The notes beneath the pieces were generated by a model. It worked only from the letters and a program-made list of their open reading frames with translations, did no database searches and was not told where the DNA came from. Made by a program: the position numbers and the translations under genes. From the IMG/VR virus record IMGVR_UViG_3300030098_002339, positions 24,285 to 88,284 of that record: DNA of 64,000 nucleotides; one strand, written 5' to 3'. This document shows positions 45,155-61,222 of this stretch, in pieces (the stretch's first letter is position 1; each line of letters starts with the position of its first letter). The DNA is from a virus.

Positions 45155-45248
45155 GAATCCAGTCGCTAGAAGTTTACCTAAATACAAACATAAACGCTTT
45201 AAAGATAATACGAAATATAATAGGAAGAAGTATAAGTTAGAGTATTAG
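45144..45248 (+). CDS. 34-aa basic peptide (not in ORF track)
   Basis: MTTRNPVARSL...KYNRKK. Confidence 0.45.
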   Translation: MTTRNPVARSLPKYKHKRFKDNTKYNRKKYKLEY

Positions 45249-45917
45249 TTTGGATTTAGGTTTTTTTTCTTTTCTAGGTTCACCGAATACATTAAAACTA
45301 AAAGATCTACGTTCTCCTTTTGTTCTAAAAGGATAAACCATATGATACATCCACCAGGGAAAGAGATAATAATCTCCAACCTTTGGGCGGATTCTTACTG
45401 TATTAGTTGAAAATAATTGGACTTGTCCATACTGCATTTCAATACCACCAGCAGTTGGATAATGATCTAGATCTTCTTTATCCCATTCTTCTTTAATACC
45501 TTTAGGTAAAGATAGATACCCTACACAAGACATATGACAATTCGTATGGTAATGTAAGGGATTAAAATCACCTGCAAAGGTTCTTACATACCAACCCGAT
45601 TTAAATACTATTTTTTGAAGTTCTTTAGAATTATCTGGATGTGCTTCAATATAAGCACTAACTAATTTTTGAAAATAGGGAGCCCATTTTTCAAATACTT
45701 CAGGACTAATAATTAACTCTTGTTTAACATTACCGACTAGATCATCAGAGAAATCATGTAATTTACTTTTCTCTTTATCAGCAACAATGTTATCACAATC
45801 TTTATTAAAATCATCAATCAGTTCTTGAGGTAATTTACAATGACCTATGGATGGACCAAAAGGTCTATAAATTTTAAGTTCTTTATTCTCTTTATTTAAT
45901 TTACTATAATGTGCCAC
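45237..45917 (-). CDS. Putative 2OG-Fe(II) oxygenase (unit C)
   Basis: Close homologue of 1843-2526. Confidence 0.8.
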   Translation of the reverse strand: MAHYSKLNKENKELKIYRPFGPSIGHCKLPQELIDDFNKDCDNIVADKEKSKLHDFSDDLVGNVKQELIISPEVFEKWAPYFQKLVSAYIEAHPDNSKELQKIVFKSGWYVRTFAGDFNPLHYHTNCHMSCVGYLSLPKGIKEEWDKEDLDHYPTAGGIEMQYGQVQLFSTNTVRIRPKVGDYYLFPWWMYHMVYPFRTKGERRSFSFNVFGEPRKEKKPKSKLIL

Positions 45918-46191
45918 GTTTCCACTTTCTATATCCTTCTACCCAGGATTCTTTAGGTTCATTAGTATAGTCTCTTTCAATAATCATTTCAATAAAGTGT
46001 ATAGCTTTAAGTAAGTCTTTCTTACCACCTTTATCTTGGTGTCTAATGATATACTTAATAGCTGATCCTTCAGGAAATAATAACTTATTTTCTACAACAA
46101 ATTTACTAGGCTGAATCTTATATTTTAAATAATAAGATCCACCTACCTGTTGATCATAACTAGAACTTGAGTTTGAAACCTTTTTTTTCAT
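45904..46191 (-). CDS. DUF3310-family protein (unit C)
   Basis: QVGGSYY...EGSAIKYIIRH..KG..DL.KAIH; start re-called. Confidence 0.75.
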   Translation of the reverse strand: MKKKVSNSSSSYDQQVGGSYYLKYKIQPSKFVVENKLLFPEGSAIKYIIRHQDKGGKKDLLKAIHFIEMIIERDYTNEPKESWVEGYRKWKRGTL

Positions 46192-46519
46192 ATTTAATTT
46201 GAGCAGGAGTTCTTTTATCATGTAAAAGTTTAAGCTGCTCATCAGTCATAATATACTCTTTATTCTTTAAAGCAATCTGTATTTTAGTATAAGCATAATC
46301 TGGATCTATATTAGCCATTCTAAATACTATTTTAAAATCTTTAGACTTTTTGGAAAGCCAAGTAAGTGCTTTATGTTTACAATCAACATATCCTTTTCTA
46401 ATACCTTCGTAAGTCGCATCTCTAACTGCTTGAGCAATTACCGCTGTCCACAGTATATGTTCAGGACTCTTCTCTAAATCTGTCGACTGTTCTGTGGGTA
46501 GTGTCTTTAACCTCAACAT
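46160..46519 (-). CDS. Conserved hypothetical protein (unit C)
   Basis: Homologue of 2761. Confidence 0.75.
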   Translation of the reverse strand: MLRLKTLPTEQSTDLEKSPEHILWTAVIAQAVRDATYEGIRKGYVDCKHKALTWLSKKSKDFKIVFRMANIDPDYAYTKIQIALKNKEYIMTDEQLKLLHDKRTPAQIKYEKKGFKLKF

Positions 46520-46691
46520 CTTTTACAACCTCATAAGTTACTCTTGATTTTCTCATGCCATCATCACGAAATTTAAATTCACTTAGGTTTAATTTTTTAA
46601 AGTTAGATAAGGCATGGTCATCATCTTCAGCAGATAAATATATTTCTGTTGTTTGAGGTAACCATACCCATACTTTAAACTTATAAATCAT
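46461..46691 (-). CDS. Conserved hypothetical protein (unit C)
   Basis: Homologue of 3056. Confidence 0.75.
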   Translation of the reverse strand: MIYKFKVWVWLPQTTEIYLSAEDDDHALSNFKKLNLSEFKFRDDGMRKSRVTYEVVKDVEVKDTTHRTVDRFREES

Positions 46692-47014
46692 ATATTATGT
46701 TGTCTTCTACTAGCTTCTAAAGTTCTAAAGAGATCTATAATTAGACCTTCTTTATCTCTTTTATTACCCATTGTAGCTGACTTAACTTCAGCCTGGAATA
46801 ATTCTTCAACAGCATTCTTATAAATATCTGAAGCATAAAAGCCTTGCTCTTTAGCAGATATAGATTTTAATTCTCTATCATCCATTATAAATAATGCTTT
46901 CTTTCTCTTTAATAATCTATCTAGATACTTTACATTAGCATTAGCTTCTGCACTCTGTTCATCAGTATCACTTAGATATTTTAGAGCTTTCTCTAATCGT
47001 TCTTCTGTTATCAT
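46688..47014 (-). CDS. UvsY-like helical protein (unit C)
   Basis: Homologue of 3286. Confidence 0.6.
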   Translation of the reverse strand: MITEERLEKALKYLSDTDEQSAEANANVKYLDRLLKRKKALFIMDDRELKSISAKEQGFYASDIYKNAVEELFQAEVKSATMGNKRDKEGLIIDLFRTLEASRRQHNI

Positions 47015-47244
47015 TTTTCACCTACTTTTTTACAATACGTTAAAAATACTTTATATTCTTTATTATCAATCTTATAAAATACTCCTTCATATTTTTGTTC
47101 ACCTGGTTTACTATATGTATTTTTTACTACATATTCTTCGCAAGTTTGATAATCCACAAATTGTTGTTTCAGAACATATTTCATTCCTAACTTTTGTGGA
47201 TTGATTTCGCTGGGTGCTATTAATAGCATTAATAATTCTATCAT
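47011..47244 (-). CDS. Small exported hypothetical protein
   Basis: AAGGA SD; 2 Cys as in 3729. Confidence 0.6.
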   Translation of the reverse strand: MIELLMLLIAPSEINPQKLGMKYVLKQQFVDYQTCEEYVVKNTYSKPGEQKYEGVFYKIDNKEYKVFLTYCKKVGEK

Positions 47245-47363
47245 ATATTCCTTTTATTAAATGACAAAGTGGGCTCATTTATATTTATACATTTGTTCTA
47301 TGTTGAACCCACTCGCCACGCTATGCTTAAGAGGGAGATGATTCGTCAGCATAGCAATTCGGT

Positions 47364-47819
47364 TTAAAACTGATCGTTAAATTCATCAGGATTTTCTTTA
47401 GCAGATAATATCTTTCTTACATATCCATCTACTTTAGTAAAATCAATTTCTTTACCTGATTGAATTGATGCAGCCATTAAATTACTCATAGTCAATCTAT
47501 ATTTTTCTTCCCATTGACCAGATTTAATTGGTGCAGATTGAACAGCATTTGGTACAGGTACACTAGCAGCAACTTCGCCACCTAGTAACTCAACTGACTT
47601 TGCAGTTTGATACCATTTACCATTCTTGCTTTGTCTTGCAGGCATTGCAATGATTTTTAATCTTGCACCTTTCTGCCAACCTTCAGCACCTACTGCTTCA
47701 CCATAAATAGTCATATCATTACCATCATCTTTGGTAACGTAAATACTATATTTACCGCCACCATCTCTTGATGCAAATGATTTCTTATGTGAGCATTCAA
47801 ATGTTTCTAGATTTTCCAT
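47364..47819 (-). CDS. SSB-like protein (unit C)
   Basis: Homologue of 4053; AGGAGG SD before MENLETF. Confidence 0.65.
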   Translation of the reverse strand: MENLETFECSHKKSFASRDGGGKYSIYVTKDDGNDMTIYGEAVGAEGWQKGARLKIIAMPARQSKNGKWYQTAKSVELLGGEVAASVPVPNAVQSAPIKSGQWEEKYRLTMSNLMAASIQSGKEIDFTKVDGYVRKILSAKENPDEFNDQF

Positions 47820-47874
47820 ATTCCTCCTTTTATTTAATTGTTTAACTATACTACCTATTCGTTGCATATATACC

Positions 47875-48672
47875 TCATTTCCAGGCTGTATGCCATATCT
47901 TTCTTGCGAACGCTTCAGCACCTGGCGAATATCTCCATCTCCAGTTGTCGAATGTCAAAGGAAACATTCGTACAACGTCTTCCTTTGTTTTCGCTATTCC
48001 TAAGATATGTTCTATCGATTTAAAGGCTTGGATTAAAGTTTCTAAACATCCTACATGATCTCCTAAATCAGAAGTATGATGATCCCAAGCAGATGCATAT
48101 AACAGTAAGCATTCTTTATTGAATAACTCACGATATAAGAACTGCTGCCTTAAATGATCGGGTTTAGGGTGATAGTTATGATTAATTCTTCCCTTTCTCC
48201 CCTTATGTCTTTCTGCTGCAGTTGGAGCATATCTCCAAACTTTAGCAGTCGCTTTAGTATCAACGATATAATCATTGAACTCAAAGTCTGTCTTCGCAAC
48301 TACTGGCAAACATAGATCCTTATAAGGACCATTATATTCCCTTTGATAATGAATTAATTTACCATATTGTTTTAATTCTTTAACAAATGTATTTGCTATT
48401 TGAGCAGTCCATTCGTATTCATCATCAATGGTTCCTCCGTTTTCACCACATCTTTCTATGTATTTACCTTTAGCATCACTTATGATAAGTTTTTCATCAG
48501 TGATTTGATTTACTAATGCATGATGAGCTGCTTCTTCCGCAGCGTGTCCCATTCGCATTCTTGCATTCTCTTCTGTTTCGAATCCGTATATTTTTTCTAT
48601 GATCCACATTTGCGGACAATCAATAAACGTATTACCAGCAGAAGCTGAATGATGTTCTATAACTTTCAACAT
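47875..48672 (-). CDS. PD-(D/E)XK exonuclease (unit C)
   Basis: Homologue of 4576. Confidence 0.85.
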   Translation of the reverse strand: MLKVIEHHSASAGNTFIDCPQMWIIEKIYGFETEENARMRMGHAAEEAAHHALVNQITDEKLIISDAKGKYIERCGENGGTIDDEYEWTAQIANTFVKELKQYGKLIHYQREYNGPYKDLCLPVVAKTDFEFNDYIVDTKATAKVWRYAPTAAERHKGRKGRINHNYHPKPDHLRQQFLYRELFNKECLLLYASAWDHHTSDLGDHVGCLETLIQAFKSIEHILGIAKTKEDVVRMFPLTFDNWRWRYSPGAEAFARKIWHTAWK

Positions 48673-48685
48673 AATTTTCTCCGTA

Positions 48686-48978
48686 TGATTGTTAATATTC
48701 AAAAGTACTTATGTAGTACTTATAACATATCCCTTGAAACTTTGAAGGGAAAAAAACCAATAAAAGATAAAGATGAGTATAATAAATACAACTTATCTAT
48801 TATCTTATGTTGGCTATTGCTACCTACGCAACGCTGGGGTAGCAAAAGCCTTATAGCTCGTTTCCACGGGTGTAAGCATAAGAATAGGGTATATCGTCTT
48901 ATTCGCTTCTATGAGTCTAATAGAGGCTTTAAACGCTATGTTAATGAGGCTATAAAAGGGTATAAATGCGACAAATAG
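48686..48978 (+). CDS. DnaA-C-like HTH protein (unit C); start approximate
   Basis: IARFHGCKHKNRVYRL identical to unit B. Confidence 0.55.
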
Positions 48979-49463
48979 AAAAACCAGAACTTATCTCTAC
49001 AGTAATGGATAAGAAGAAAGTATGGTTAAATATAAGAGAATCTCGCCTCTTATATATGTTTCATCGCAAGCTCATTTCTTGGGAAGAATATGAAGCTGGT
49101 TCCAGATACCGATTAATGTGTGAACTCCAAGGTGGAGGTACAGGTAATGTTCTTAAAGAACGTACTGATGGTGGAACTCCAGATTTTATGACTATGCAAA
49201 TAGGGGCAGCACTAGCAATAGCAGAAGTGGATGCTGAACTTGGTGAAGATAATGCTAGAAATATGAAGTTATTTTGCCATGAAAATTATGGTATTATTGA
49301 AATTGCACATATGCTAGGTAAGTCAGAACGTAGTACTTCTTTTTTAATTCACGAAGGTTTAGCTAGATTAGCAGTTTATTATGGGTACAAAAAAGTTAGA
49401 CATACCATCAGGAGACAAGGTACAAAGGTTAAGAGACAAGCAATATCTGAAATTTGTAAGTAG
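48966..49463 (+). CDS. Sigma-70 region 4-like regulator (unit C)
   Basis: Homologue of 5660. Confidence 0.7.
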   Translation: MRQIEKPELISTVMDKKKVWLNIRESRLLYMFHRKLISWEEYEAGSRYRLMCELQGGGTGNVLKERTDGGTPDFMTMQIGAALAIAEVDAELGEDNARNMKLFCHENYGIIEIAHMLGKSERSTSFLIHEGLARLAVYYGYKKVRHTIRRQGTKVKRQAISEICK

Positions 49464-49806
49464 ACAACCTTGCTTACTTTGTTTAACTCCTAAGTGTCAG
49501 GCACATCACTTAACATTTGCTATGCCACGTGGAATGAGTCAGAAAACTGGAGATCAATGGGCAGTTCCTTTATGTCCTGCACATCATTCTCAGCTGCATT
49601 TATGTGGCAAAAATGAGAAGGATTTTTGGAAAACACTAGATATAGATGCTGAAGATATAGCTTGTATACTATATCAATGGTGGTTAGATCAGAAAGTTTC
49701 TAAAGAATTTTTTACTGATGAGTCAATACTTTGGGTCAAGATCTATAATAATCTTGTACCTAAGATAAAGAAAAATATTGACTTTCTCATGCAACCCAAA
49801 CTATAG
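49381..49806 (+). CDS. DUF968/Ref-like nuclease (unit C)
   Basis: Homologue of 6075. Confidence 0.8.
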   Translation: MGTKKLDIPSGDKVQRLRDKQYLKFVSRQPCLLCLTPKCQAHHLTFAMPRGMSQKTGDQWAVPLCPAHHSQLHLCGKNEKDFWKTLDIDAEDIACILYQWWLDQKVSKEFFTDESILWVKIYNNLVPKIKKNIDFLMQPKL

Positions 49807-49838
49807 ATTGGAATATCCTCGCCAGAGGTATGTTTATT

Positions 49839-50123
49839 ATGGCTAAAATATATAAATTTCCTAAAGGTAAAAAGTTATATTCTCAAAGGTTTATACAGAA
49901 TATAAACCCTAATGCTATAGGTGATTTTATCCAAAAACAAAATCCACACCTTTCTTTAAGAGCTGCAGATGCTATGGCTCTAGCTATTATTTATAGTACA
50001 CATTTAAAATTAGTTTTTGAAGAAGAAGGATCTCAGATTCCTATTGATGTCATGGAAGATTTTGAGGAGAACGATCATAAAAGTTTTTTGTGGAATAAAC
50101 ATGGTCCAAAGACGTTACATTAA
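49839..50123 (+). CDS. Conserved hypothetical protein (unit C)
   Basis: Homologue of 6535. Confidence 0.75.
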   Translation: MAKIYKFPKGKKLYSQRFIQNINPNAIGDFIQKQNPHLSLRAADAMALAIIYSTHLKLVFEEEGSQIPIDVMEDFEENDHKSFLWNKHGPKTLH

Positions 50124-50379
50124 AAAGAAAAAGCCTAATAAAGATTTTCCTTATAAACCTATTCCTAAGCATTTGCTTTGGCAAGATGCTCAATCACAAA
50201 CAGGTTGGTTAACTAAAGAACAAATGGATAAACTTAGACCTGCACAGTCTAAAACTAAAGGATGGATTTATGAAGAAACTCAAGATTATATTAAGACGTT
50301 TGGAACTTACTCTATAGATTCAGAAGATGAATCAATTGAATTTGGGGAAGTAATTTGTATTCCTAAGAATTGGATTTAA
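50101..50379 (+). CDS. Conserved hypothetical protein (unit C)
   Basis: Homologue of 6794. Confidence 0.75.
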   Translation: MVQRRYIKKKKPNKDFPYKPIPKHLLWQDAQSQTGWLTKEQMDKLRPAQSKTKGWIYEETQDYIKTFGTYSIDSEDESIEFGEVICIPKNWI

Positions 50380-50380
50380 T

Positions 50381-50670
50381 TAATGGCTTTGTTCTCAAAA
50401 CTGTTTTCCTCCCGTGTTAATTCACAACACTATGTTAATTCATAGTGTACCTGGAATAAATTTACTCGAACTTCTCAGGTTGCTAAATACTTAGCTCCAC
50501 AGTCATTATTTCGATACCATTAACGAACCAGGCAGTCTCCCACCTGGTTAGCCGAAGTGATGGCTTTTTTAAATAGGTCGTCACCCTAAAACTGGACATT
50601 TTAAGTACCTCCAATTCTTTTACGACAGATCGGTACACCATTCACTTCTATCTGATCTAGAATCAGAATT
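50381..50670 (-). ncRNA. Candidate large pseudoknotted ncRNA
   Basis: No ORF in the track; many helices, GAAGTGA/TCACTTC long-range pairing, twin GAATTAAC loops. Confidence 0.65.
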
Positions 50671-50674
50671 CTGT

Positions 50675-50932
50675 TCACTCATCGTGAATTGGTTCAAGTG
50701 GATTAGTGTAAACTTCTTCTACAGTAGCTCCACCTAGTTCTATAATTCTTTTTTTTGTCGCAATAATTTCAGCTTTAACATGATCTTTACTATGTTCTAA
50801 AGCAGTAACTAATTTTGGAAAATTAGTAGGATATATTCCATAAATAGTTAAATCGTTAATTGCTGTCGCTACTCTTTGAAGACCTCTTTGTCTTTTTTCT
50901 AACCTGAGTATCTCGCTGTCTGGAGTTATCAT
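50675..50932 (-). CDS. Conserved early protein (unit C)
   Basis: Homologue of 7147. Confidence 0.8.
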   Translation of the reverse strand: MITPDSEILRLEKRQRGLQRVATAINDLTIYGIYPTNFPKLVTALEHSKDHVKAEIIATKKRIIELGGATVEEVYTNPLEPIHDE

Positions 50933-51074
50933 TTAGTTTCCTTTCTCTCTGATTTTCTGCTTCCATACGTTCACATTCAGATTCATTTTCCATTTCTTTT
51001 ACTTTACGTTTTAACTTATCTATTTCTAACTGCTTACCAGCTAGTAATGCTTTCCATTGTCCATCATTTACCAT
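50856..51074 (-). CDS. Early hypothetical protein
   Basis: KQLEIDKLKRK also encoded at ~7460-7545 in unit B. Confidence 0.65.
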   Translation of the reverse strand: MVNDGQWKALLAGKQLEIDKLKRKVKEMENESECERMEAENQRERKLNDNSRQRDTQVRKKTKRSSKSSDSN

Positions 51075-51279
51075 TTGTCCTCACATTTTCTATTTGTTCA
51101 CGTAAATATTCTATTCGATGTTTATACTCTTTAATCCAGTTTTGAATAATAAGATTATGTTCATCAAATAAAAATCCACAAGCTATAGCATTATCTAGCA
51201 CAGATACACTTTCGATGCAATCATCGAGTTCATTCTGTGCTTGCTCTATTTCTTTAGCTCTATTAACAGTTATTTTCAT
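51064..51279 (-). CDS. Early hypothetical protein (unit C)
   Basis: Homologue of 7521. Confidence 0.7.
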   Translation of the reverse strand: MKITVNRAKEIEQAQNELDDCIESVSVLDNAIACGFLFDEHNLIIQNWIKEYKHRIEYLREQIENVRTNGK

Positions 51280-51575
51280 ATTACACCTGCTTTTCTAAGT
51301 TTATTAATATTATCATCAACTTGTTTAGCTAAATTTTGATTATCCTTAATAAGCTCGTTATTTAATTGTCGAAGATCACCATTAATTTTCTTATGTTCTT
51401 CATTAATATTTAATAAATCAGTTATACGTCTATCTTTTTCTAAAGTATCTATTTGAGCTTGTTCTCTAACTAAAGCAAGCTCTTTCTCATAATGATCTAT
51501 TTTTTTCATCATGAGTTCATCAGTTTCTTTTTTAACTTTCTCTATTTCAATAATATGTTTCCAATATTCACTCAT
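51276..51575 (-). CDS. Coiled-coil early protein (unit C)
   Basis: Homologue of 7852. Confidence 0.75.
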   Translation of the reverse strand: MSEYWKHIIEIEKVKKETDELMMKKIDHYEKELALVREQAQIDTLEKDRRITDLLNINEEHKKINGDLRQLNNELIKDNQNLAKQVDDNINKLRKAGVI

Positions 51576-51910
51576 GCTGCATCATCCTGCACTTTCTGTA
51601 TTACACATACATGACCTGCAATGAAATCTCCAGGAATAATTTGATGTTTTGTTTTCTTTGCCCATTTATGCCATGCATCTGTAATATTTTTATTAATAAT
51701 AAATGGATGTTTTAATTTAGATTCTTCATCCATCCATAGATCAGTATATCCATCTTTACGATTAGAATACTTTGGTAAATATCCTGTAGTTCTTTCAATC
51801 ATTCTACAGTCTATTTCCTTATACATATCTTCGAATGTAGGTTTCATTTTATAAGGATCTGATTTAATAGATCCATCTGTTCTAAATGTATGTAATTTAT
51901 AACTACTCAT
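51572..51910 (-). CDS. DUF3846-like protein (unit C)
   Basis: Homologue of 8124. Confidence 0.65.
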   Translation of the reverse strand: MSSYKLHTFRTDGSIKSDPYKMKPTFEDMYKEIDCRMIERTTGYLPKYSNRKDGYTDLWMDEESKLKHPFIINKNITDAWHKWAKKTKHQIIPGDFIAGHVCVIQKVQDDAA

Positions 51911-52217
51911 TTTTCCTCCTTTTTTAATAATAAGCTATACCTTCCTGTATCAGTATTAAATGCAAGATCTGCTTCAGATCCATCTAACAATGAACCTGCA
52001 TCAGTTACATCATAATCTAATTCTTTTTCCAGAAAGTTTTGTATAGCCACTCGTATTTCATATATATCAGTCATTTTTTTTTCTTTTCTTCTTATTTTCT
52101 ACGATTTGTCTTTTAACTCTTTTTTTTAATTGTTTGTTCATTTTGATAGTCTTATCTTTTTTAACATCAATATAATAAACAGGCATAAAGTCTAATAGAT
52201 CTTTCATTTTTTTCATC

Positions 52218-52604
52218 TTACCAACTACAATTATAGGTTACTTCTCTACCAGCTTTTAATGCTTTTCTTGCAGCTCTTAAAAACTGTTTATCAAGTTCTT
52301 TATACTCTTTCACAGACTCTTCTTGGTATTGTTGTCCCCAAAAGAATCCATCAGATGCAAAGTAATCATAGTAACCATTCTTAATAGCTGTTTCTAATCT
52401 ATCTAAGATTTCATTAGTAATGTTTACTGGTCCTCCATTAAATCCTAAATGAGAAAGACCTCCTTCGTTTTCACTAGCTTTCTCTTCTCTAGGATTTTGT
52501 TTGTTATACTCTTCTGCCATAAACACTTGTAATCTTGCGTGTTTACGCCAATAGAACTCCTTATTGAGTCCATCTGCATATTGATCAAGTCCCATATTTA
52601 TCAC
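52218..52604 (-). CDS. Conserved phage protein (MGLDQY...YWRKH family), unit C only
   Basis: MGLDQYA, YWRKH, GFFWG, Y.CSW motifs; absent from unit B. Confidence 0.7.
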   Translation of the reverse strand: MINMGLDQYADGLNKEFYWRKHARLQVFMAEEYNKQNPREEKASENEGGLSHLGFNGGPVNITNEILDRLETAIKNGYYDYFASDGFFWGQQYQEESVKEYKELDKQFLRAARKALKAGREVTYNCSW

Positions 52605-52851
52605 CTATTTCTTTCATCTTTTTACCCATATCTGTAGTCAAAATTAATTCTTCATATCTTTTAATTTCAGCCTTCAGATGTTCAGTTATTTTTAATCCTA
52701 AATCTTTAGGTGTTATTTTAGGATCAACATTTGCTATAAAATTTACTGTATCTTGTATAGCATATAAACCTCCAGTCCATCTAGCATGATTCTGTTGATC
52801 GACTGTATCATTTAACATTTGTTTTATATCCATTTTTTTCCTTTCTACCAA
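52585..52851 (-). CDS. Hypothetical early protein
   Basis: GAAAGGA SD before MDIKQM. Confidence 0.6.
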   Translation of the reverse strand: MVERKKMDIKQMLNDTVDQQNHARWTGGLYAIQDTVNFIANVDPKITPKDLGLKITEHLKAEIKRYEELILTTDMGKKMKEIGDKYGT

Positions 52852-52971
52852 AAATTTTCCAATATTTACGTAGAATAATTTCTGGTATTTGTTTCTTTTT
52901 ATATTTTGATGTATCTATTTGTGATACCCAAATTGCAAAGGACATTATTTTTTTCATATTAATTCCTTTCT

Positions 52972-53008
52972 AGGGCATTAAGCCCTACACACAGTTAGGG
53001 CTTATGCC
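52972..53008 (-). promoter_or_regulatory. Conserved intergenic hairpin
   Basis: Homologue of 9448-9483. Confidence 0.7.
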
Positions 53009-53017
53009 AATTAGTAT

Positions 53018-53350
53018 TTAAGCTGATTTTCGTTCAACTTTACTCGTTTCACTTATCTGTTCAAGTTTAGCTGCAACATCTTTTGCTTTCGCTGCATCTA
53101 TTAACTTATGACCTCTAATTACTATCGTAGCAGCAGCAGTTTGTTGTCCGATTATATTTCCTTGTCGTACACCTAACTCCTGTATTACTTGATCAGCAAT
53201 CTTAATCTGCATTGCAATATTCTTATACATTTTATAATACTTGCTATGCACTCTGTTATATAGTTCTTGACTAGATTCTGTTTTCTTTTGACTCGATTGG
53301 TTCAACATCAATAACGTCTCCTTTCTTGTCACGTTTTTTCTTAATTTCAT
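53018..53350 (-). CDS. Hypothetical early protein (unit C)
   Basis: Distant homologue of 9490. Confidence 0.65.
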   Translation of the reverse strand: MKLRKNVTRKETLLMLNQSSQKKTESSQELYNRVHSKYYKMYKNIAMQIKIADQVIQELGVRQGNIIGQQTAAATIVIRGHKLIDAAKAKDVAAKLEQISETSKVERKSA

Positions 53351-53471
53351 AAGGCATTTCTAGTCTGTCAGGCATATTCTTTTCAACTGCATTGACTATA
53401 CCTACGACTATCCTTACTGGTAATGTTAATCCTCGAATTAACATATCACCGTATTTTTCTACTCGCTTCAT
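53271..53471 (-). CDS. Hypothetical early protein (unit C)
   Basis: Homologue of 9719. Confidence 0.7.
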   Translation of the reverse strand: MKRVEKYGDMLIRGLTLPVRIVVGIVNAVEKNMPDRLEMPYEIKKKRDKKGDVIDVEPIESKENRI

Positions 53472-53655
53472 CGTATTCTCCTTTCTTTTTTCTTAATCGA
53501 TTATACTTTTCTTTGGCTGCGTAGAACTCTTTATCAAATTCCTTTGTTCCAGGAATTGGATCAACATCAGCGGTGAGCCAATTCCATGCTTTTCTTACTG
53601 TTACAGCAGCAACGCTATAAGCAATAAATCGAACAAAATTAATAACTCCATTCAT
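53446..53655 (-). CDS. Hypothetical early protein (unit C)
   Basis: Homologue of 9900. Confidence 0.75.
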   Translation of the reverse strand: MNGVINFVRFIAYSVAAVTVRKAWNWLTADVDPIPGTKEFDKEFYAAKEKYNRLRKKKGEYDEASRKIR

Positions 53656-54048
53656 TTACTCCCTTTCTTCTCTATGATCTTCTAACTTAGAATCATACTT
53701 AGTTAGGTCTTCAAAGAATGTATTTATATCAGTATCTGTTAATTCACAGAACTTCCATAAATTTCTTAATCCGATAGCGTTCATTCCACATTCGTATTTT
53801 TGAACTTGTTGAAATGTTACGTCTAACATAATTGATACTTTGGTCTGAGTTAGATTCTTTTCTAATCTTATCTTTCTTAACTTCATACCAATTACTCGTG
53901 CAAATACACTAGGTACTATGTCATTATTATTTCTTATTGTTTCATCTATTTCTATTTGACATAACTCTGGTGTTTTGAACTTTCTTATTTGTCCTGTTCT
54001 TGCGCTCATATGTATCTTTCTCCTTTCCATATAGTTGTTTGTAGACAA
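53656..54048 (-). CDS. XRE-family HTH regulator (unit C, divergent)
   Basis: LTQTKVSIMLDVTFQQVQKYECG. Confidence 0.85.
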   Translation of the reverse strand: MSTNNYMERRKIHMSARTGQIRKFKTPELCQIEIDETIRNNNDIVPSVFARVIGMKLRKIRLEKNLTQTKVSIMLDVTFQQVQKYECGMNAIGLRNLWKFCELTDTDINTFFEDLTKYDSKLEDHREERE

Positions 54049-54313
54049 GCAACTCTCGTTTGCCAGAGGTGCTTGGCTTTGTTATTACTCTAATCGATGG
54101 TTTCCCATCTCTATATACTTTAACTAATTGAATCCATCCTTCACTTGGATATAGTATTTCGAGCATTATTGGTTTAATCCAATATCTCTTCCACCACTTG
54201 ATATGTTCACTCTGAATAGATCCTGTAAATGGTTGATGATACATCACCCTACTTACTATACTCAGATCTATTCTTCTCTCTTTGAACTTTCCTTTTAGTA
54301 TTACTTTGAACAT
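53942..54313 (-). CDS. Conserved early protein (unit C)
   Basis: Homologue of 10430. Confidence 0.75.
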   Translation of the reverse strand: MFKVILKGKFKERRIDLSIVSRVMYHQPFTGSIQSEHIKWWKRYWIKPIMLEILYPSEGWIQLVKVYRDGKPSIRVITKPSTSGKRELLVYKQLYGKEKDTYERKNRTNKKVQNTRVMSNRNR

Positions 54314-54549
54314 TCTTTTTCCTTATCCAATATTCAGCATCCATCCTTTTAGTTGGATGATTCATTATTTCTGATAATTTAACTATTGTATATTTCATCT
54401 TTCCATCCAAGGTTTAATTGCAAATAGTATCAATACTAAGAGCACTATCATATATAGTTCCTTACTCTGTATTGTATTCCAAAATGAATCTATTGCAAGT
54501 TGTATTATTGTAGGCTCCATACTCTCTATCCTTTCAGTTTAAAATTTTT

Positions 54550-54898
54550 TATAGTCTACCATAGTTGCGTAGTGCCCTTGCGGAGTGACACGTACCCAAG
54601 TACTAACTACCACGTTAGACTAGGCATATAGTAGACTATACGATATATTATATATATCTCACACGTGCTTGGATTTTTTCTAGCCTGTGTTTCCACAGGA
54701 TGTATTACACTTGCAAATGTAATAACTGCCAAGCAACTACCAGGTGCATAAGCACATTAGGTTAACTCTAGATTTTACATCTAGAATTACAAGTAGTACA
54801 CTACTCATCTGGCTCTCAGGATTTATCCCAAACACCAGACTCTCGCTACCTTATCGCGTTAACCAAACGATTCTTCAGTCAACGTGAGAGATATATAT
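54550..54898 (-). ncRNA. Candidate two-domain multibranch ncRNA
   Basis: Closing helices 54550-59/54631-40 and 54650-66/54882-98; GAAA and GCAA tetraloops on minus strand. Confidence 0.65.
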
Positions 54899-54905
54899 TT
54901 TTTTC

Positions 54906-54940
54906 AGGGCTATGCCCTGCACTAAGCAAGGGCATAACCC
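54906..54940 (-). promoter_or_regulatory. Hairpin of the 9448/52972 type
   Basis: GGGTTATGCCCTTGC-loop-GCAGGGCATAGCCC. Confidence 0.6.
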
Positions 54941-54949
54941 ATATTATAT

Positions 54950-55123
54950 TTATTTCTTATCAACTAATGCTTTAATCATATCTTTTAATTCAGCTAGTTC
55001 TTTTCTAACTTGAACAAATGATTGATGTGTAGCATATGGCTGATGTTTCTTATTATCCCAGTTCTTGTTTAACCAAGCAACTTTTTCATTGGGAGTCTTA
55101 CCATTCATAGGTTGTACAGACAT
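54950..55123 (-). CDS. 57-aa early protein (not in ORF track)
   Basis: GAAAGGAG SD; MSVQPMNGKTPNEK...; positional analogue of 11071. Confidence 0.6.
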   Translation of the reverse strand: MSVQPMNGKTPNEKVAWLNKNWDNKKHQPYATHQSFVQVRKELAELKDMIKALVDKK

Positions 55124-55173
55124 ATTATCTCCTTTCTGATAATAAATATCACTATCGCTAGAGCCAGTGATAT

Positions 55174-55305
55174 TTAAACTATTTCTTTATTTTCGTCCTT
55201 TAAACTCTTAAAGAACTTATAACTAAACACACCACTTGCTACCATCACTGCTAATTGTATAGAGAGATAGATAGCTAATAGAGTCATTACTATTGTAGTT
55301 AACAT
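55174..55305 (-). CDS. First early gene: 43-aa single-TM protein (not in ORF track)
   Basis: GAAAGGA SD; LLAIY shared with 11469-11606. Confidence 0.65.
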   Translation of the reverse strand: MLTTIVMTLLAIYLSIQLAVMVASGVFSYKFFKSLKDENKEIV

Positions 55306-55686
55306 CTTATCCTTTCCGAGCTCGATTCTATGCTAGAATATAGCTCTTTCTGTGTGACTATTTGATAATCATCAATCAATATCATCAATGTTATCAAGGG
55401 TTAACGAGTGATTCGGTAATCAATATATCAATGGATTTAGCCCAATGTATACCGACTACCGAAGATAAACAAACAACAACAAAATTGTTGTCGATTTCGC
55501 TAGAAATATCGACAACTATTTTAAATAAAAACAAAGACGAATTGCGACAAAGTTGTCGCTAGCAATTCGACTGTCATTTTAATGACGGGTTTGAAATTCA
55601 CCCTGATCACATCGAGATTGATCTCGATTGATCAAATAGGGGGGTTTTGTACAGCAACAACACAACAACGAAAGAAGGAGGAAACT
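55306..55686. promoter_or_regulatory. Early/late divergence region with hairpin array (unit C)
   Basis: Same blocks and hairpin order as 11607-11972. Confidence 0.7.
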
Positions 55687-55953
55687 ATGGCATTACCATT
55701 CGCAGCAGGTTCTGTAGGGATGAGATTCCTAAGAACACTCTACAAAGGTAAGAAGAAGATTGGCAAAGGAGCTTCAATGGCAGCGGGATACGCTGGCAAA
55801 AAAGGCTTCGTAAAGACTAGCCAAGCAATTACAGGTGCTTCAAAGAAAGTACATAGAGGAACTATGTCCGCTAAAAGTTTAGCGAAAAAATACCCAAAAT
55901 CGACTGCAGCCATCGGTGGTGCAGCGGCTTGGGATATGCTTGATCGTGACTAA
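55687..55953 (+). CDS. Small basic protein (unit C)
   Basis: AGGAGG SD; homologue of 11973. Confidence 0.75.
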   Translation: MALPFAAGSVGMRFLRTLYKGKKKIGKGASMAAGYAGKKGFVKTSQAITGASKKVHRGTMSAKSLAKKYPKSTAAIGGAAAWDMLDRD

Positions 55954-56084
55954 TGGCTAAGAAACCCAAATGGGGTGTTAACACCTACGTCAAACGAACC
56001 AAGCCTCAAATAGGCAGACATAAGAAACGGATGAACAAGGACGAAAAACGATCCTATAAAAAATACAGAGGACAAGGCAAATAA
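55953..56084 (+). CDS. 43-aa YRGQGK basic protein (not in ORF track)
   Basis: Homologue of 12227. Confidence 0.75.
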   Translation: MAKKPKWGVNTYVKRTKPQIGRHKKRMNKDEKRSYKKYRGQGK

Positions 56085-56554
56085 TGGCAACAACACTAAC
56101 AGCAGCAACATTAACTGTGACATTAACAGAGGCAATTTCGTTAAACGGATATGACCAGGGATCAAAGAATACCCTAAGCATAGCCAGCATTAACGAAGTC
56201 CATAAGCGTATTCTAACAGTCCCAACTTCAGAAATAGAAGTTTTGGCTATGAGTACCGCTAATGCTTCTGGGACTTTCATAGAAGGCGATGTACGATATA
56301 TTCGGATCACTAATTTAGATGATACGAACCATGTAACTCTTACCTTCAAAAATGAAAACGATGATGAGTTCGCAGTTAAACTAGACAAAGGACAATCCTT
56401 TATCTACAATGGCGACCTATCAGGAGGAGTCGTAGATACGATGGATGGCATAGACGGAACAGGATTAACAGTTTCCTTGGGGGACCTGGTAAATATAACT
56501 GCACTTGCAGATACTGCCGCTTGCGATCTAGAAGTATTTGTGGCTTGCGTATAA
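56084..56554 (+). CDS. Conserved beta-rich protein (unit C)
   Basis: Homologue of 12362. Confidence 0.75.
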   Translation: MATTLTAATLTVTLTEAISLNGYDQGSKNTLSIASINEVHKRILTVPTSEIEVLAMSTANASGTFIEGDVRYIRITNLDDTNHVTLTFKNENDDEFAVKLDKGQSFIYNGDLSGGVVDTMDGIDGTGLTVSLGDLVNITALADTAACDLEVFVACV

Positions 56555-56712
56555 TGAAATATCCATTAGGATTACCTTATACAGTCATCAGTAGTCTTTC
56601 AGCTAAAACTTTAAAAAAGAGCTGGAAGAAACGGGATCAGTTTATTAAAAATTTAAAGAATCCTAAGTTCAGAGCAAAAGCTAAACTGAAGGATTATAAA
56701 ACAGTACTATAA
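56554..56712 (+). CDS. Small basic protein (unit C)
   Basis: Homologue of 12832. Confidence 0.6.
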   Translation: MKYPLGLPYTVISSLSAKTLKKSWKKRDQFIKNLKNPKFRAKAKLKDYKTVL

Positions 56713-56951
56713 TGGCTAAACGATCATTAGAAAAATTAGCAGATAAAATTATCCAATTAACTCCTGAAGAAGGACAACAATTGGGTTTAATTATAAGAGC
56801 TAAGATGTTGCCAGAAATGGCAAAGAAACAAGCTGGATTATTAGAACAAGCAGCGAATAATCCACAGATGGCACAAATGGGACAACCACGTGGTGGTCAA
56901 ATGCCTATGCCAACTTCAAGACAAGCTGCGATGCAAGGACTATTAAGATAA
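56712..56951 (+). CDS. Conserved hypothetical protein (unit C)
   Basis: Homologue of 12983. Confidence 0.75.
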   Translation: MAKRSLEKLADKIIQLTPEEGQQLGLIIRAKMLPEMAKKQAGLLEQAANNPQMAQMGQPRGGQMPMPTSRQAAMQGLLR

Positions 56952-57031
56952 TGAAAAAGAAAAAAAATAAGAAGAAGAAAAATCAAAAGAAAAAGAAGAA
57001 CAAAAAAAAGAATAAGAAAAAAGGGAGATAG
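56951..57031 (+). CDS. 26-aa poly-Lys peptide (not in ORF track)
   Basis: MKKKKNKKKKNQKKKKNKKKNKKKGR; TAATG coupling. Confidence 0.5.
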   Translation: MKKKKNKKKKNQKKKKNKKKNKKKGR

Positions 57032-57041
57032 AAAGGTAAAT

Positions 57042-57119
57042 ATGCCAAAAGGAAAAGGAACATACGGGTCTAAAAGAGGTAGACCTCGTAAAAAAAACAA
57101 AAAGAAAAAAAGAAAGTAA
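57042..57119 (+). CDS. 25-aa AT-hook peptide (not in ORF track)
   Basis: MPKGKGTYGSKRGRPRKKNKKKKRK; AAAGGT SD. Confidence 0.6.
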   Translation: MPKGKGTYGSKRGRPRKKNKKKKRK

Positions 57120-57128
57120 AATACTAAT

Positions 57129-57440
57129 ATGGCAAATGTTAATGGAAATTGGAAAGGCGGTAAAGCAGTAGTTAAGTATTCCAAAGCTAAAGCTAAGGGA
57201 AGAAAAGCTGCTGGTCAAATTGCTAGAAACTACAAAAGATATGTTAGCCCTTCTGTTAAAATATTAAAAGGAGCAACAGGCTTAGCAGCTGGTGCTGGTA
57301 AACTAGCTTTAAGATTTCCTGGTACAGGTTTAGTTGCAGCTGGTTTATATGCTGGAGCTAAAGGTATTGCTAAAAGACAGAAGGGTTTAAAATTTCCTCA
57401 ATATAGACAATTTAATAAACGAGGAAGAAAGATCATCTAA
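57129..57440 (+). CDS. Basic protein (unit C)
   Basis: Homologue of 13336. Confidence 0.7.
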   Translation: MANVNGNWKGGKAVVKYSKAKAKGRKAAGQIARNYKRYVSPSVKILKGATGLAAGAGKLALRFPGTGLVAAGLYAGAKGIAKRQKGLKFPQYRQFNKRGRKII

Positions 57441-57817
57441 TGAGTGAAGATAAAACACAAGAAAACAAAGTTGAAACTAAAGAAGAAGGTCCTTTAGACA
57501 AACCTAATTATTGGGGAGTCTTAGGAAGCAAAAAACCTTCTAATAAAGGTGGAAAACGTGAAGGAGCTGGAAGACCATTAGGTTCTAAAAGCACAAAACC
57601 TAAATGGAAATCTATGGATGAGATGTCTGTGAAATATCAACATTCCCCTTTAGATTATATGTTATCTGTGTTAAATAATCCTATGAGCTCACCTGAGAGA
57701 AAGATGTATGCTGCTGAAAAATCAGCTCCATATATTCATCCTAGGTTAGCTTCTTCAACAGCAAGAATAGGATCAGATGAACCAATCGAAATCAAAGTCC
57801 AATGGCAAAAAGATTAA
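57440..57817 (+). CDS. terS: Terminase small subunit (unit C)
   Basis: Homologue of 13554. Confidence 0.8.
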   Translation: MSEDKTQENKVETKEEGPLDKPNYWGVLGSKKPSNKGGKREGAGRPLGSKSTKPKWKSMDEMSVKYQHSPLDYMLSVLNNPMSSPERKMYAAEKSAPYIHPRLASSTARIGSDEPIEIKVQWQKD

Positions 57818-59075
57818 GCGAATTGAAATTCCTTATAAGCCAAGACCTTATCAATTAGAAGTACACGATAATAAAAAACGATTTAATGTATTAGTCTGTC
57901 ACAGACGATTCGGTAAATCAGTATTATCCATTAACGAATTAATTAAAACCGCAGCAGCAAAACCGAGAGCTCTGCTGGCTTTCATAGCTCCTACCTATAG
58001 ACAAGGAAAATCTATAGCTTGGGAGTATTTAAAATTTTATACGAAACCTCTAATGTATTTTGGAGGAAGTAGGAACGAGACTGAATTAAGAATAGATTTA
58101 TTTAACGGAAGTCGTATTCAAATATTTGGTGCAGATAATCCAGACAGCATCCGTGGATTAGGATTTGACGGAGTGGTTATGGATGAATATGCAATTATGT
58201 CACCTAGAGTTTGGACAGAGATCGTAAGACCTGCTGTATCAGACAAACTAGGATGGGTTATGTTTATCGGAACACCCATGGGACATAATCAATTCTGGGA
58301 AGTCTATGATTACGCCCAACGAGGTCATAAAGACTGGATGGGTAAAATCTATAGAGCCTCAGAAACCAAGGTGATTCCAGACGAGGAGCTGGCGCAGGCA
58401 CGTTCCATAATGACCGAAGAGCAGTATGACCAAGAGTTCGAATGCTCTTTTACTGCAGCGGTCTCAGGAAGTTATTACGGAAGATTAATAACGAAAGCCG
58501 AAAATTCTAGAAGAATCGGATCCGTGCCTGTGGATAGTAACGTAGGTGTAGAAACGTGGTGGGATTTAGGTATAGGTGACTCAACAGCAATTTGGTTTGC
58601 TCAACGAGTGGGAAAAGAAATACACCTTATAGATTATTATGAAACTTCAGGAGAATCTTTAGCACACTATGCAGATAAACTTGAAGAAAAAGGATATGCT
58701 TATTCTAATCACATAGCTCCACACGATATAATGGCTAGAGAATTAGGAACAGGTAAATCAAGAATGGAAGTTGCTAATGAATTGGGTATTGATTTTGAAG
58801 TAGCTCCTAAGTTAGAAGTAGATCACGGAATTGAATCTGTGAGAAATTTATTACCACATTGTTATTTTGATAGAGAAAAATGTAAACTAGGATTAGATGC
58901 ATTAAGACAATATCGAAAACAATGGGATGATAAAAACCAAGTGTTTAAAAATAAACCTCTACACGATTGGTGTTCTCATGCAGCTGACGCATTTCGATAT
59001 GGCTGTGTATCTGAACCGATTGATATGACGGAGTGGAATAAACCAATTAAAGTAGATACCAAATATATAGTATGA
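57777..59075 (+). CDS. terL: Terminase large subunit (unit C)
   Basis: Same motifs as 13813. Confidence 0.95.
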   Translation: MNQSKSKSNGKKIKRIEIPYKPRPYQLEVHDNKKRFNVLVCHRRFGKSVLSINELIKTAAAKPRALLAFIAPTYRQGKSIAWEYLKFYTKPLMYFGGSRNETELRIDLFNGSRIQIFGADNPDSIRGLGFDGVVMDEYAIMSPRVWTEIVRPAVSDKLGWVMFIGTPMGHNQFWEVYDYAQRGHKDWMGKIYRASETKVIPDEELAQARSIMTEEQYDQEFECSFTAAVSGSYYGRLITKAENSRRIGSVPVDSNVGVETWWDLGIGDSTAIWFAQRVGKEIHLIDYYETSGESLAHYADKLEEKGYAYSNHIAPHDIMARELGTGKSRMEVANELGIDFEVAPKLEVDHGIESVRNLLPHCYFDREKCKLGLDALRQYRKQWDDKNQVFKNKPLHDWCSHAADAFRYGCVSEPIDMTEWNKPIKVDTKYIV

Positions 59076-61222
59076 AATCAGAAAAAGAAATATTAGCAAT
59101 ATTAGGAAAAGAATTACATAACGCTTCTGGATTTATTGGAGGCGAATTAGTTGCTCGAAGGAAAAAATCCTTAGAGTACTACCTAGGAATGCCATTAGGG
59201 AACGAACAAGAAGGTCGTTCTCAAGTGGTATCTAATGATGTATTAGATACAGTTGAAAGCCTCATGCCATCTTTAATGAGAATCTTTACAGCTGGCGATA
59301 ATGTATTTAATTGTGAAGGTGTTGGACCAGAAGACGATGAAATGGCACGTCAATGTTCCGATTACCTTAATTATATTTTTTATAAAGAGAACAATGGATT
59401 TGTAGCTCTTTATTCTGCATTTAAAGATGCATTGATCCAAAAGAATGGAATCTTAAAAGTTTATTGGGATGATTCTCAGAAAACTGAAAGAGAAGAATAT
59501 ACAAGATTAACGGATGATGAATTTAATGATCTCGTTGCAGATCCTCAAGTTAAAGTTAAAAATCATTCAGAATACGAAGAACCAATAACGGATGATCGTG
59601 GTAAAGAAATTGATAAAGTTGCTTTACACGATGTTGTTATTCATAGAACAAGATTGTACGGACAGGTTAAAATTGAACCAGTTCCTCCAGAAGAATTTTT
59701 AATTGAACGTAGATGTAAATCTATTGATGCTTCCCATTTTGTTTGTCATCGAACAACAAAAACAAGAACAGAACTTATTGAAATGGGTTTTCCCAAAGAT
59801 GTCGTAGAAGGATTACCTGCAGGCGATGCAGATTATTTTACGGAAGATAAGTTTGTTAGACATCAAAATATTGACCTACAGCACGGAGCTGCTGATGGAG
59901 ATAAAGGCACAACAGATATTACAGTTCATGAATGTTATATTAACATTGATGTTAATGAAGATGGTAAATCAGAATTAGTTAAAATCATTACAGCAGGTAG
60001 CGGTACTGGTAAAATTCTAGATTTAGAAGAAGTTGATACTATACCATTTATATCAATGACACCCGTTATTATGCCACACAGATTTCATGGCAGATCTGTG
60101 TCGGAATTAGTAGAAGACATCCAACTTATTAAGTCTACTGTTATGAGACAAATGTTAGATAATATGTATCTAACAAACAATAACAGAGTTGCAGTACAAG
60201 ATGGTCAAGTTGCAATGGATGATCTTCTAACTAACCGACCAGGTGGAATCGTAAGAACAAAACAACCTCCTCAAAATGTTATGATGCCTATTCAGGCACA
60301 ACCAATTACGGAACAAGCTAGTGGAATGTTAGCTTATCTAGATTCTGTTAAAGAAACTAGAACAGGGGTTACAAGACAATCCCAGGGGCTAGATGCTGAT
60401 ACCTTAAATAAAACAGCAACTGGACAAAACCAAATTCTGACACAATCACAAATGAGAATGGAGTTAATTGCCAGGATCTTTGCTGAAACAGGTGTTAAGG
60501 ATCTAGCTTTAAAAATATTTGAATTGGTATGCAAGTATCAACAAAAGGAAAAGATAGTAAGAATTAGAGGAAAATACATTCCTATGAGACCTTATGAATG
60601 GAAAGACAGAGTAAATGTTACTGTTCAAGTAGGTTTAGGTACAGGTTCTAAAGAACAACAGCTAATTTTATTAAATGCAATCTTAGAAAGACAAATGCAG
60701 GCAATAAACTTACAACAAAATGTCTATGGACCTATGGTAAACCTTAGAAATGTATACAATAGTTTAAAAAAATTAATAGAAAATGCTGGATTGAACGGAA
60801 TTGAGCCATTTTTCATGGATCCTGACGTTGGTGCAGCACAAATGCCACAACTTCCACCTAAACCACCAACAGAATTTGAAAAAGTGACGTTGGCTCAGGT
60901 TCAAGGTGAAAATCAGCGTGAACAATTGAAAGCTGAAGTAAGATTAAAAGAAGTTGAAGGTAGAATGAGACAACAATTGCTTGATTTTGAGATAAAAATT
61001 AAAGAATTAGAACTTAAATACGGATCTAAAATCGATGAACTTGAATTGAAACGTAGAACTATGTTAGAAGAAGTAGATCTTCAAAAATCTGGAGATTTAA
61101 TGAAAGAAATAGTGAAAGGACAACAACAATTCTTTAATGATGGACAAGCTAGAAACACAGCTGCGAAGGGGAAAGAGAGCCCAGGTGCTGCTAGACGATC
61201 CCCTGCTAAAGCAAGGGTTTAA
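59072..61222 (+). CDS. Portal protein (unit C)
   Basis: Homologue of 15117. Confidence 0.92.
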   Translation: MKSEKEILAILGKELHNASGFIGGELVARRKKSLEYYLGMPLGNEQEGRSQVVSNDVLDTVESLMPSLMRIFTAGDNVFNCEGVGPEDDEMARQCSDYLNYIFYKENNGFVALYSAFKDALIQKNGILKVYWDDSQKTEREEYTRLTDDEFNDLVADPQVKVKNHSEYEEPITDDRGKEIDKVALHDVVIHRTRLYGQVKIEPVPPEEFLIERRCKSIDASHFVCHRTTKTRTELIEMGFPKDVVEGLPAGDADYFTEDKFVRHQNIDLQHGAADGDKGTTDITVHECYINIDVNEDGKSELVKIITAGSGTGKILDLEEVDTIPFISMTPVIMPHRFHGRSVSELVEDIQLIKSTVMRQMLDNMYLTNNNRVAVQDGQVAMDDLLTNRPGGIVRTKQPPQNVMMPIQAQPITEQASGMLAYLDSVKETRTGVTRQSQGLDADTLNKTATGQNQILTQSQMRMELIARIFAETGVKDLALKIFELVCKYQQKEKIVRIRGKYIPMRPYEWKDRVNVTVQVGLGTGSKEQQLILLNAILERQMQAINLQQNVYGPMVNLRNVYNSLKKLIENAGLNGIEPFFMDPDVGAAQMPQLPPKPPTEFEKVTLAQVQGENQREQLKAEVRLKEVEGRMRQQLLDFEIKIKELELKYGSKIDELELKRRTMLEEVDLQKSGDLMKEIVKGQQQFFNDGQARNTAAKGKESPGAARRSPAKARV

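Follow-up and report, generated by a model that had tools for sequence, protein, structure and literature searches.

The exonuclease-resistant RNAs (xrRNAs) of flaviviruses are compact structures of the 3' untranslated region (3'-UTR) that yield a stable downstream fragment. Among phages, the intercistronic processing hairpins of T7 and the promoter-stem-loop (PeSL) cassettes of T4-type phages are conserved structured sequences that lie at gene-cassette boundaries, shape message ends and are possible crossover points for modular shuffling. Pelagiphage-like podoviruses are among the most abundant phages of the ocean, and to our knowledge the control of their messages is almost wholly unstudied. 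The subject of this study is a structured RNA element that fills a gap of 295 nucleotides (nt) between convergent open reading frames (ORFs), at positions 50380–50674 on the minus strand of a stretch of IMG/VR virus record IMGVR_UViG_3300030098_002339. The record is 88 kb long, and the stretch analyzed, referred to as the window, comprises 64,000 nt of it. The phage is an uncultured marine relative of the pelagiphage-like podoviruses: its large terminase has about 50% identity to those of Pelagibacter phages, and at best 52%, to that of Pelagibacter phage HTVC106P.

The closest described systems resemble the element in part. The RNase E-processed 3'-UTR RNAs of enterobacteria (Chao et al. 2017, PMC5222698) are also structured downstream fragments from the 3' end of a message, and the element likewise has, just past a stop codon, a putative cut site that fits the core motif of the enzyme, RN↓WUU (the arrow marks the cut). 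The RNAs described in that source, however, are small transcripts that bind Hfq and have an intrinsic terminator at the 3' end, whereas the element is about 290 nt long, consists of probably knotted modules and shows no terminator on the minus strand. The xrRNAs of plant viruses are, in the account given in PMC6546385, compact 3'-UTR structures that are sometimes arranged in tandem and leave a stable downstream fragment. In the coremin type the first hairpin is small and conserved and has a YGAD loop, the spacer after it is conserved and 10 nt long, and the second hairpin varies (PMC6546385); the element is built otherwise, since its first hairpin is the variable one (16–108 nt), the spacer has ~2–5 nt and the second hairpin has the fixed loop. 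Both the fold and the host enzymes differ from those of xrRNAs, which leaves a resemblance in function alone. The element is not similar to the T7 hairpins or PeSL cassettes in sequence or structure, the present modules being larger, probably knotted and equipped with fixed loops. GOLLD and ROOL are phage-borne and ornate, with roles that are not known, but their Rfam models do not match the element, which is a chain of small modules and not one large fold. Candidates of the same source and kind were reported by Fremin, Bhatt and Kyrpides in 2023 (PMC10690425), who give 8,495 models of uncatalogued covarying RNA motifs, 29–151 nt long, from viral intergenic regions. The text of that report, in the parts compared, describes no such leader or mosaic, and full-text literature searches gave no description of these motifs; the supplements of PMC10690425 lay outside the comparison, and X, P2 or Y may already be among its unnamed candidates. 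Uncatalogued structured RNAs of phages are thus a known kind, and the unusual features here are a leader common to exchangeable bodies and the hint of a defined RNA end.

Structured modules of the gap

The initial annotation treated the gap as a single RNA of 290 nt. It is instead, with high probability, a mosaic of three independently folding RNA modules (leader plus X, P2 and Y) that form the sense-strand 3' untranslated end of the upstream minus-strand early operon, each module family recurring in shuffled combinations in uncultured marine phages, with none found in cellular genomes. The single fold was abandoned because other contigs carry the three parts separately.

Relatives were gathered by means of the plus-strand neighbor gene (4 loci), the P2 hairpin pattern (19 stretches), the upstream protein (62 loci) and the X pattern (7 viral and 21 metagenome stretches). 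Hairpin P2 (50526–50549, minus strand) has a stem of 8 bp, 9 bp in relatives, and a loop GGGAGACU at 50534–50541, and is followed by UUCGUUAA; the relatives have the same loop hairpin, then UUCG or CUUG, then YUAA. Across 54 distinct copies of 41 nt, 99.6% of the 486 stem cells are paired and eight of the nine pairs have changed on both sides, a level that none of 500 shuffles attained, with slid controls at 30–46% paired. The loop is GGGAGACU in 53 of the 54 copies. Pairing of the 5' flank of the P1-P2 core with its 3' flank, as a third helix, was rejected, as no compensating change could be seen by eye. A phage-internal antisense target of the loop was likewise rejected (7-mer complements occur in the window at or below the chance level), as was a frame of seven codons across P2 (start, GGA GAC ..., stop), the start codon of which is missing from CACCC-type stems. 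In one related locus (L025:6221–6261, minus strand), ~450 nt from an X unit and in an unrelated gene context, a hairpin has the GGGAGACU loop on an unrelated stem with a U-run after it, resembling an intrinsic terminator; since the loop recurs there on another stem, it may be a reusable signal.

Module X, with its linker UAGA, occupies 50555–50650 on the minus strand as a domain of ~100 nt joined to the leader. It is closed by a helix of 10 bp (50638–50647 with 50555–50563) and contains P3 (GUACC/GGUAC, 50632–50636 with 50605–50609), P4 (UAGG/CCUA, around 50571–50591) and the conserved single strands UUGGAGG, UCCAG and an A-run; its long unpaired stretches are invariant across 23 distinct rows. 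A covariance model (R1) built on 23 sequences and run on 496,138 bases matched 28 copies over their full length and one that is cut, and gave two further weak matches (19 bits). In the resulting alignment 94.0% of 683 cells are paired and 16 of 28 pairs have changed on both sides, and none of 500 shuffles reached any of five measures; when the weak and cut rows are removed, 608 of 644 cells are paired and 13 of the 28 pairs have changed on both sides. The window X is the most divergent copy (94 bits) and has its nearest relatives in L093 and L102.

The closing helix of X had been read as a pseudoknot between a loop, TCACTTC, and a 5' GAAGTGA, but it is an ordinary helix in the minimum free energy (MFE) fold. 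A proposed AGCC/GGCT hairpin competes with it and is missing from the other copies of the module, and both the hairpin and the loop-to-5' pseudoknot were dropped in favor of the covarying closing helix. P4, proposed as TAGG/CCTA, is not drawn as such in the MFE fold but is supported by the comparative data.

A loop-loop knot in X is likely from the sequence comparison. The candidate contact, first suggested as GTCGT with ACGAC, would join the P3 loop (50622–50627, minus strand) to the P4 loop (50578–50584). Five pairs can form in every homologue, that is in 11 of the 11 loop combinations found; the window-type P4 loop makes five pairs with its own P3 loop only, and the other types differ compatibly at the contact. 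The support from covariation is modest, because an invariant GAUCA gives an alternative register, and by our estimate a five-pair match in a loop of ~25 nt has a chance of ~1 in 7. For another possible knot, between UUGGA and UCCAG, both sides are invariant and hence give no covariation signal.

Module Y (50380–50523, minus strand) is a multibranch domain with 12 homologues from syntenic gaps. It is closed by UUAAUGG (50517–50523) and CCAUUAA (50380–50386), the AAUGG/CCAUU part of which is replaced by CUGG/CCAG or UUGG/CCAA in relatives, and includes hairpins Y-P3 (50472–50480 with 50449–50456) and Y-P4 (50441–50448 with 50427–50434, loop AAUUAA). One hairpin of the family has a conserved loop of 15 nt, and the loop of the second is AAUUAA or a close variant in most members. 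When members were folded separately by MFE, 13 of 13 shared the closing helix, a hairpin of the Y-P3 type and the hairpin that follows; the stem sequences vary among members and still pair, as seen in the separate folds rather than in a formal column count, since the MAFFT alignment is not structural. Three features are extra in the window copy, namely the GACUGU/ACAGUU helix (50499–50504 with 50399–50404), a second, duplicated hairpin with an AAUUAA loop (50414–50426) and the GCUAAG/UUUAGC hairpin.

The leader, ACAGAAUUCU (50665–50674, minus strand), lies directly 3' of the stop codon TGA (50675–50677) of the upstream gene, and its AUUCU is conserved. The stop codon is followed by R-A-A-U-U-C-U, then by hairpin P1, which has a UCU/AGA base, by AGAUAGA and by the body. 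Among 62 syntenic gaps, 49 have the stop codon, 0–12 nt and then [A/G/U]AUUCU, and every X unit opens with the same leader. P1 (50651–50667, UCUGAU/AUCAGA with a loop of 5 nt) is present in the MFE fold; its UCU/AGA base is conserved and its interior varies from 16 to 108 nt in relatives, so that P1 is a closing helix around inserts. Three or four of its six pairs have changed on both sides in the X alignment. Among 30 unique segments, defined by sequence anchors only and without a pairing rule, positions 4–9 from the base are 71% paired as compared with 52% (maximum 67%) in 1000 partner shuffles; an earlier count that demanded pairing for selection was discarded. A search of the window for the leader gave two matches, the element included, where 1.2 would be expected.

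Some further features of the leader region were recorded. Many P1 inserts hold self-complementary hexamers with a GAUC or GUAC core (AGAUCU, GGAUCC, GGUACC, UGAUCA), among them those of L049, L058, L060, L063, L064, L065, L071, L079, L085 and L086, and otherwise different inserts have sub-modules in common; the hexamers could be loops for kissing or dimerization or, in the DNA, sites of restriction or methylation. The sequence GGAUAGAG, which resembles the conserved leader part AGAUAGAG, occurs at 54524–54530 and 10823–10829 (minus strand) a few bases before start codons, in the manner of a ribosome-binding site. GATAGAG has 15 matches in the window against 9 expected, some of them also in contexts like those of ribosome-binding sites.

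The RNA is assigned to the sense of the early operon, the minus strand, because G-U pairs, which become mismatches on the opposite strand, far outnumber A-C combinations: they fill 92 of the 486 cells in P2, and in X there are 42 G-U and 11 A-C cells (reduced row set). The modules always have the orientation of the upstream gene. A 52-aa ORF on the minus strand (50483–50641), which runs within X, P2 and Y, was judged not to be a gene; its product belongs to no PHROG or Pfam family, and its internal ATG behind GGAGG is found only in the window, L093 and L102, 25 of the 28 full-length X copies reading ATAG there.

The minus strand of the gap has an MFE of -85.5 kcal/mol, as compared with a mean of -64.1 (sd 4.8) for 200 dinucleotide shuffles, none of which folds as well (z -4.45); the plus strand is weaker (-66.8, z -3.66). 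The structure proposed at the outset thus surpasses its shuffled controls, and most of the hairpins listed for it, TCTGAT/ATCAGA, GTACC/GGTAC, AACCAGGT/GCCTGGTT, GCTAAG/TTTAGC, ACCTG/CAGGT and ACACTATG/CATAGTGT, together with the GACTGT/ACAGTT helix, are drawn in the MFE fold. When the minus strand of the window was tiled (217 tiles of 294 nt, with only 15 shuffles per tile), the mean z was -1.6 (sd 1.5) and that of the element -5.0. Six of the 217 tiles score lower, and folding energy alone therefore cannot settle the case. The phage is generally rich in structure, so that the energy of the element by itself is unexceptional and the comparative evidence carries the case. Other strongly folding tiles start at 54685 (MFE -98.7, z -5.1), 55567 (z -5.9) and 48217 (z -5.7); the first lies in a minus-strand stretch, 54550–54900, without the AAUUCU/AGAUAGAG leader.

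The element matches no catalogued RNA family. No score reached the gathering threshold of any Rfam 15 family (4227 models, including hammerhead, twister, twister-sister, pistol, hatchet, hepatitis delta virus (HDV)-like, IMES, GOLLD, ROOL and HEARO), whether in the window or in the 19 related loci searched (129,548 bases). Run by E-value on 50250–50800, the models gave only four matches, all with E of at least 4.1 and 11.9–14.8 bits, which are noise. No ribozyme model matched in the window even at E up to 10, and none matched positions 300–700 of L097, where the best Rfam score was 21.9 bits, on the other strand, against a threshold of 55.2. ARAGORN found no transfer RNA, transfer-messenger RNA or tRNA-like gene in the window.

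Distribution and arrangement of the modules

The record contains two tandem, diverged copies of a phage genome of ~43.5 kb, 72–97% identical, which look like the co-assembly of two strains rather than a natural dimer. Unit B extends over ~1800–45200 of the window and unit C, which carries the element, over ~45200–64000. The equivalent gap of unit B has 71 nt of unlike sequence, and the X model matches the 88-kb record once, so that the element is indeed confined to unit C; the sequence GGGAGACT also occurs a single time in the window. The gap is bounded by the stop codons of an 85-aa ORF on the minus strand (50675–50932), the last early gene, and a 120-aa ORF on the plus strand (50017–50379). 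As had been proposed, the element is accessory, being absent from unit B and a few relatives.

The modules are combined in several ways. L011 and L097 have leader plus X and then a second leader plus P2, in L028 P2 precedes leader plus X, L078 and L091 have Y alone, and many relatives have leader plus P2 only. X also follows other genes and is found partly in other gene contexts; of the 26 X loci, 11 lie 2–22 nt downstream of the end of an ORF that has the same orientation and codes for 45 aa or more. The gap is a mosaic junction, in which the convergent gene on the far side differs among relatives and the modules are shuffled. The closest relatives of the window X (L093:3748–4206 and L102:1278–1736) stand 17 nt upstream of a co-oriented gene for a protein like the single-strand-binding (SSB) protein; candidate RNAs upstream of SSB protein genes are among those reported by Fremin et al. 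(PMC10690425). At least five further recurring modules occupy the same gap in relatives, among them one of ~110 nt that ends in CCCAAGGAGGAGUAGG, one with AAGGAGGU and one closed by GGGAGGGAG/CUCCCUUGCC; their carriers include L045, L049, L057, L062 and L072, L012, L016 and L089, and L003, L005 and L006.

Scans of 185,579 prokaryote genomes gave no match to the X pattern and none to the P2 pattern. With the covariation in P2 and X, this bears out a phage-specific, structured RNA with compensatory changes; for the same reason the scans point to no host. The P2 result also gives no indication of an RNA anti-CRISPR that mimics a repeat, within the exact pattern matches that were sought. A blastn search of 294 nt against 50,697 phage records was empty, so that no cultured carrier is known. 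Miniature mobile repeats of the MITE, REP or BOX kind have many copies in a genome, with terminal inverted repeats and target duplications; the element differs from them in that the 88-kb record has a single copy, the window a single leader, and the pairing is strand-specific. It also differs from a riboswitch or cis-regulatory leader, which would keep a constant place upstream of the gene it regulates and have an expression platform, as it follows genes and what lies downstream is not constant, being a promoter or a terminator in some cases and a gene, either convergent or SSB-like, in others.

A proposed stable 3'-UTR RNA and its alternatives

The stretch or part of it is present in 20 public runs, six of which are RNA libraries, and contigs of four RNA runs were mapped on 49700–51400. 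Contigs of two metatranscriptome runs, from two samples of one study, cover X, P2 and Y (run X15, 50334–50669; run X16, 50412–50669). Both stop at 50669, between A50670 and A50669 of AAUUCU, where no loose end is listed. This shared stop hints weakly at a defined RNA end. Its sequence, G-A↓A-U-U, agrees with the core motif of RNase E (PMC5222698). The same two runs have nothing on 49700–50326 or about 50670–50800, and their depth is 39–70 on the element and 4–16 on the upstream genes; these holes and depths were not used as evidence, since in contigs they prove nothing. The contigs of runs X17 and X18, which derive from relatives, end where the P2 stem starts, at 50547.

We propose that the mosaic gives rise to a processed, stable array of RNA modules in the 3'-UTR that has a boundary function, and to this reading as a whole we assign a probability of about 0.45. 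The leader R-N-A-U-U-C-U and hairpin P1 would be a processing signal, at which a host endonuclease of the RNase E type would cut between A50670 and A50669, an assignment that we make tentatively. The freed RNA would begin with two free bases and a hairpin, which would shield it from decay that depends on the 5' end, and the compact folds that follow the leader, namely the likely knotted X, the fixed-loop hairpin P2 and Y, would make the fragment long-lived. Because a processed leader and compact modules would leave such a fragment, the array could act as an operon-end boundary, separating and stabilizing the end of the message where transcription units converge and gene cassettes are exchanged. 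The stable RNA would also expose its conserved loops (GGGAGACU and UUGGAGG), which would be free to bind a putative partner. The position in the 3'-UTR agrees with this proposal, the leader following within 12 nt of the stop codon in the 49 syntenic gaps counted above, and what the array does is inferred from these features.

Several points weigh against the proposal. RN↓WUU is short and common in a genome of 35% G+C, and the leader, with AUUCU and AGAUAGAG, is longer than an RNase E site requires, so that another reader of the leader is possible, and the RNase E assignment is weak. The contigs give neither strand, true ends nor levels, both covering runs belong to a single study, DNA may be present in RNA libraries, and a 3' end is not seen in the contigs; the stop shared at 50669 could be a branch point of the assembly graph where strains differ. 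The comparative sets lean toward structure, since the P2 copies were chosen by the loop and at least five contiguous adjoining pairs (the outer four P2 pairs are free of this rule) and the X alignment was fitted to the structure of its model. The invariant GAUCA offers the kissing contact its second register. Finally, unit B and the few relatives that lack the element show that it is dispensable.

A trans-acting decoy or sponge, in which the array would display fixed loops (GGGAGACU, UUGGAGG and other GGAGG-type motifs) to titrate a factor such as the small-subunit ribosome site, a nuclease that reads GGAG, a global RNA-binding regulator or a defense protein, is unlikely but has specific features in its favor. 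A loop that stays fixed in all but one of the P2 copies while the stem changes freely is expected of a loop read by a partner, and the invariance of the long unpaired stretches of X, the presence of GGAGG-like runs in several unrelated modules of the same gaps and the accessory nature of the element fit as well; complements of the loop are, however, not above chance in the window, no partner is known, and purine-rich runs of G may merely build stems in an A+T-rich genome.

It is rather improbable that the leader (AUUCU, P1 and AGAUAGAG) and its swappable bodies constitute a novel RNA class able to generate a stable fragment of the 3'-UTR by itself, through self-cleavage before AUUCU or the stalling of a 5'–3' exonuclease, with the fixed loops then acting on a host factor. 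If so, the element would be a bacteriophage counterpart of the subgenomic RNAs of flaviviruses. Each of the two routes can be considered by itself. A block to exonuclease, by which decay from the 5' end would stall at the leader and knot as in a bacterial counterpart of viral xrRNAs, would suit the seat in the 3'-UTR and the compact, probably knotted fold directly behind the stop of the RNA-library contigs, and the tandem units of L011 and L097 recall the tandem repeats of coremin in some plant viruses (PMC6546385). A stall site, however, needs no conserved bases upstream of its hairpin, the coremin architecture is unfit because the first hairpin here is the variable one (PMC6546385), and the block would presuppose a 5'–3' exonuclease in the host; we consider it quite improbable. 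Self-cleavage, in which the leader with P2 or X would cut its own chain before AUUCU, draws on the ~25 conserved bases in junctions and loops around two helices, on the use of one leader with two bodies and on the contig stop inside a conserved motif; we consider it very improbable, as no ribozyme model of Rfam matched the window or L097 at E up to 10, and two bodies that are alike in little beyond their flanks would be odd for one catalytic core.

Hairpins with covarying stems and fixed loops are also typical of the cut sites of rolling-circle nucleases. On these grounds the element might be functional at the DNA level only, as mobile hairpin repeats, as a linker for recombination or as an origin where cassettes join, and the mosaic junction with its differing far-side genes and shuffled modules would suit such a role. 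The many G-U pairs, which are A-C mismatches on the other strand, the single copy per genome, the fixed orientation relative to the flanking genes, the coverage by RNA-library contigs and the lack of terminal inverted repeats besides the closing helices make this very unlikely. Ordinary transcription terminators or chance structure, for which the seat between convergent genes, the six tiles of lower z and a weak terminator-like plus-strand site at 50550–50565 could be cited, are scarcely credible, as no intrinsic terminator was found on the minus strand of 49800–51200, the plus-strand site is at the level of chance (0.7 expected), none of P1, P2, X and Y in the window has a U-run after it, and covarying stems with conserved loops in dozens of contigs cannot be due to chance.

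At least three well-supported families (X, the P2 core and Y) are added to the repertoire of uncatalogued RNAs, with a conserved leader and swappable, covarying bodies in an array exactly at a cassette junction. The locus offers a concrete case of gene-boundary control at the RNA level, or of a stable RNA made by the phage, in uncultured phages. No promoter was found on the minus strand before 50669. Upstream of the element, at 50929–50984, the RNA-library contigs of runs X15 and X17 skip 54 nt and have three other letters between, which is probably a strain variant of overlapping small early ORFs.

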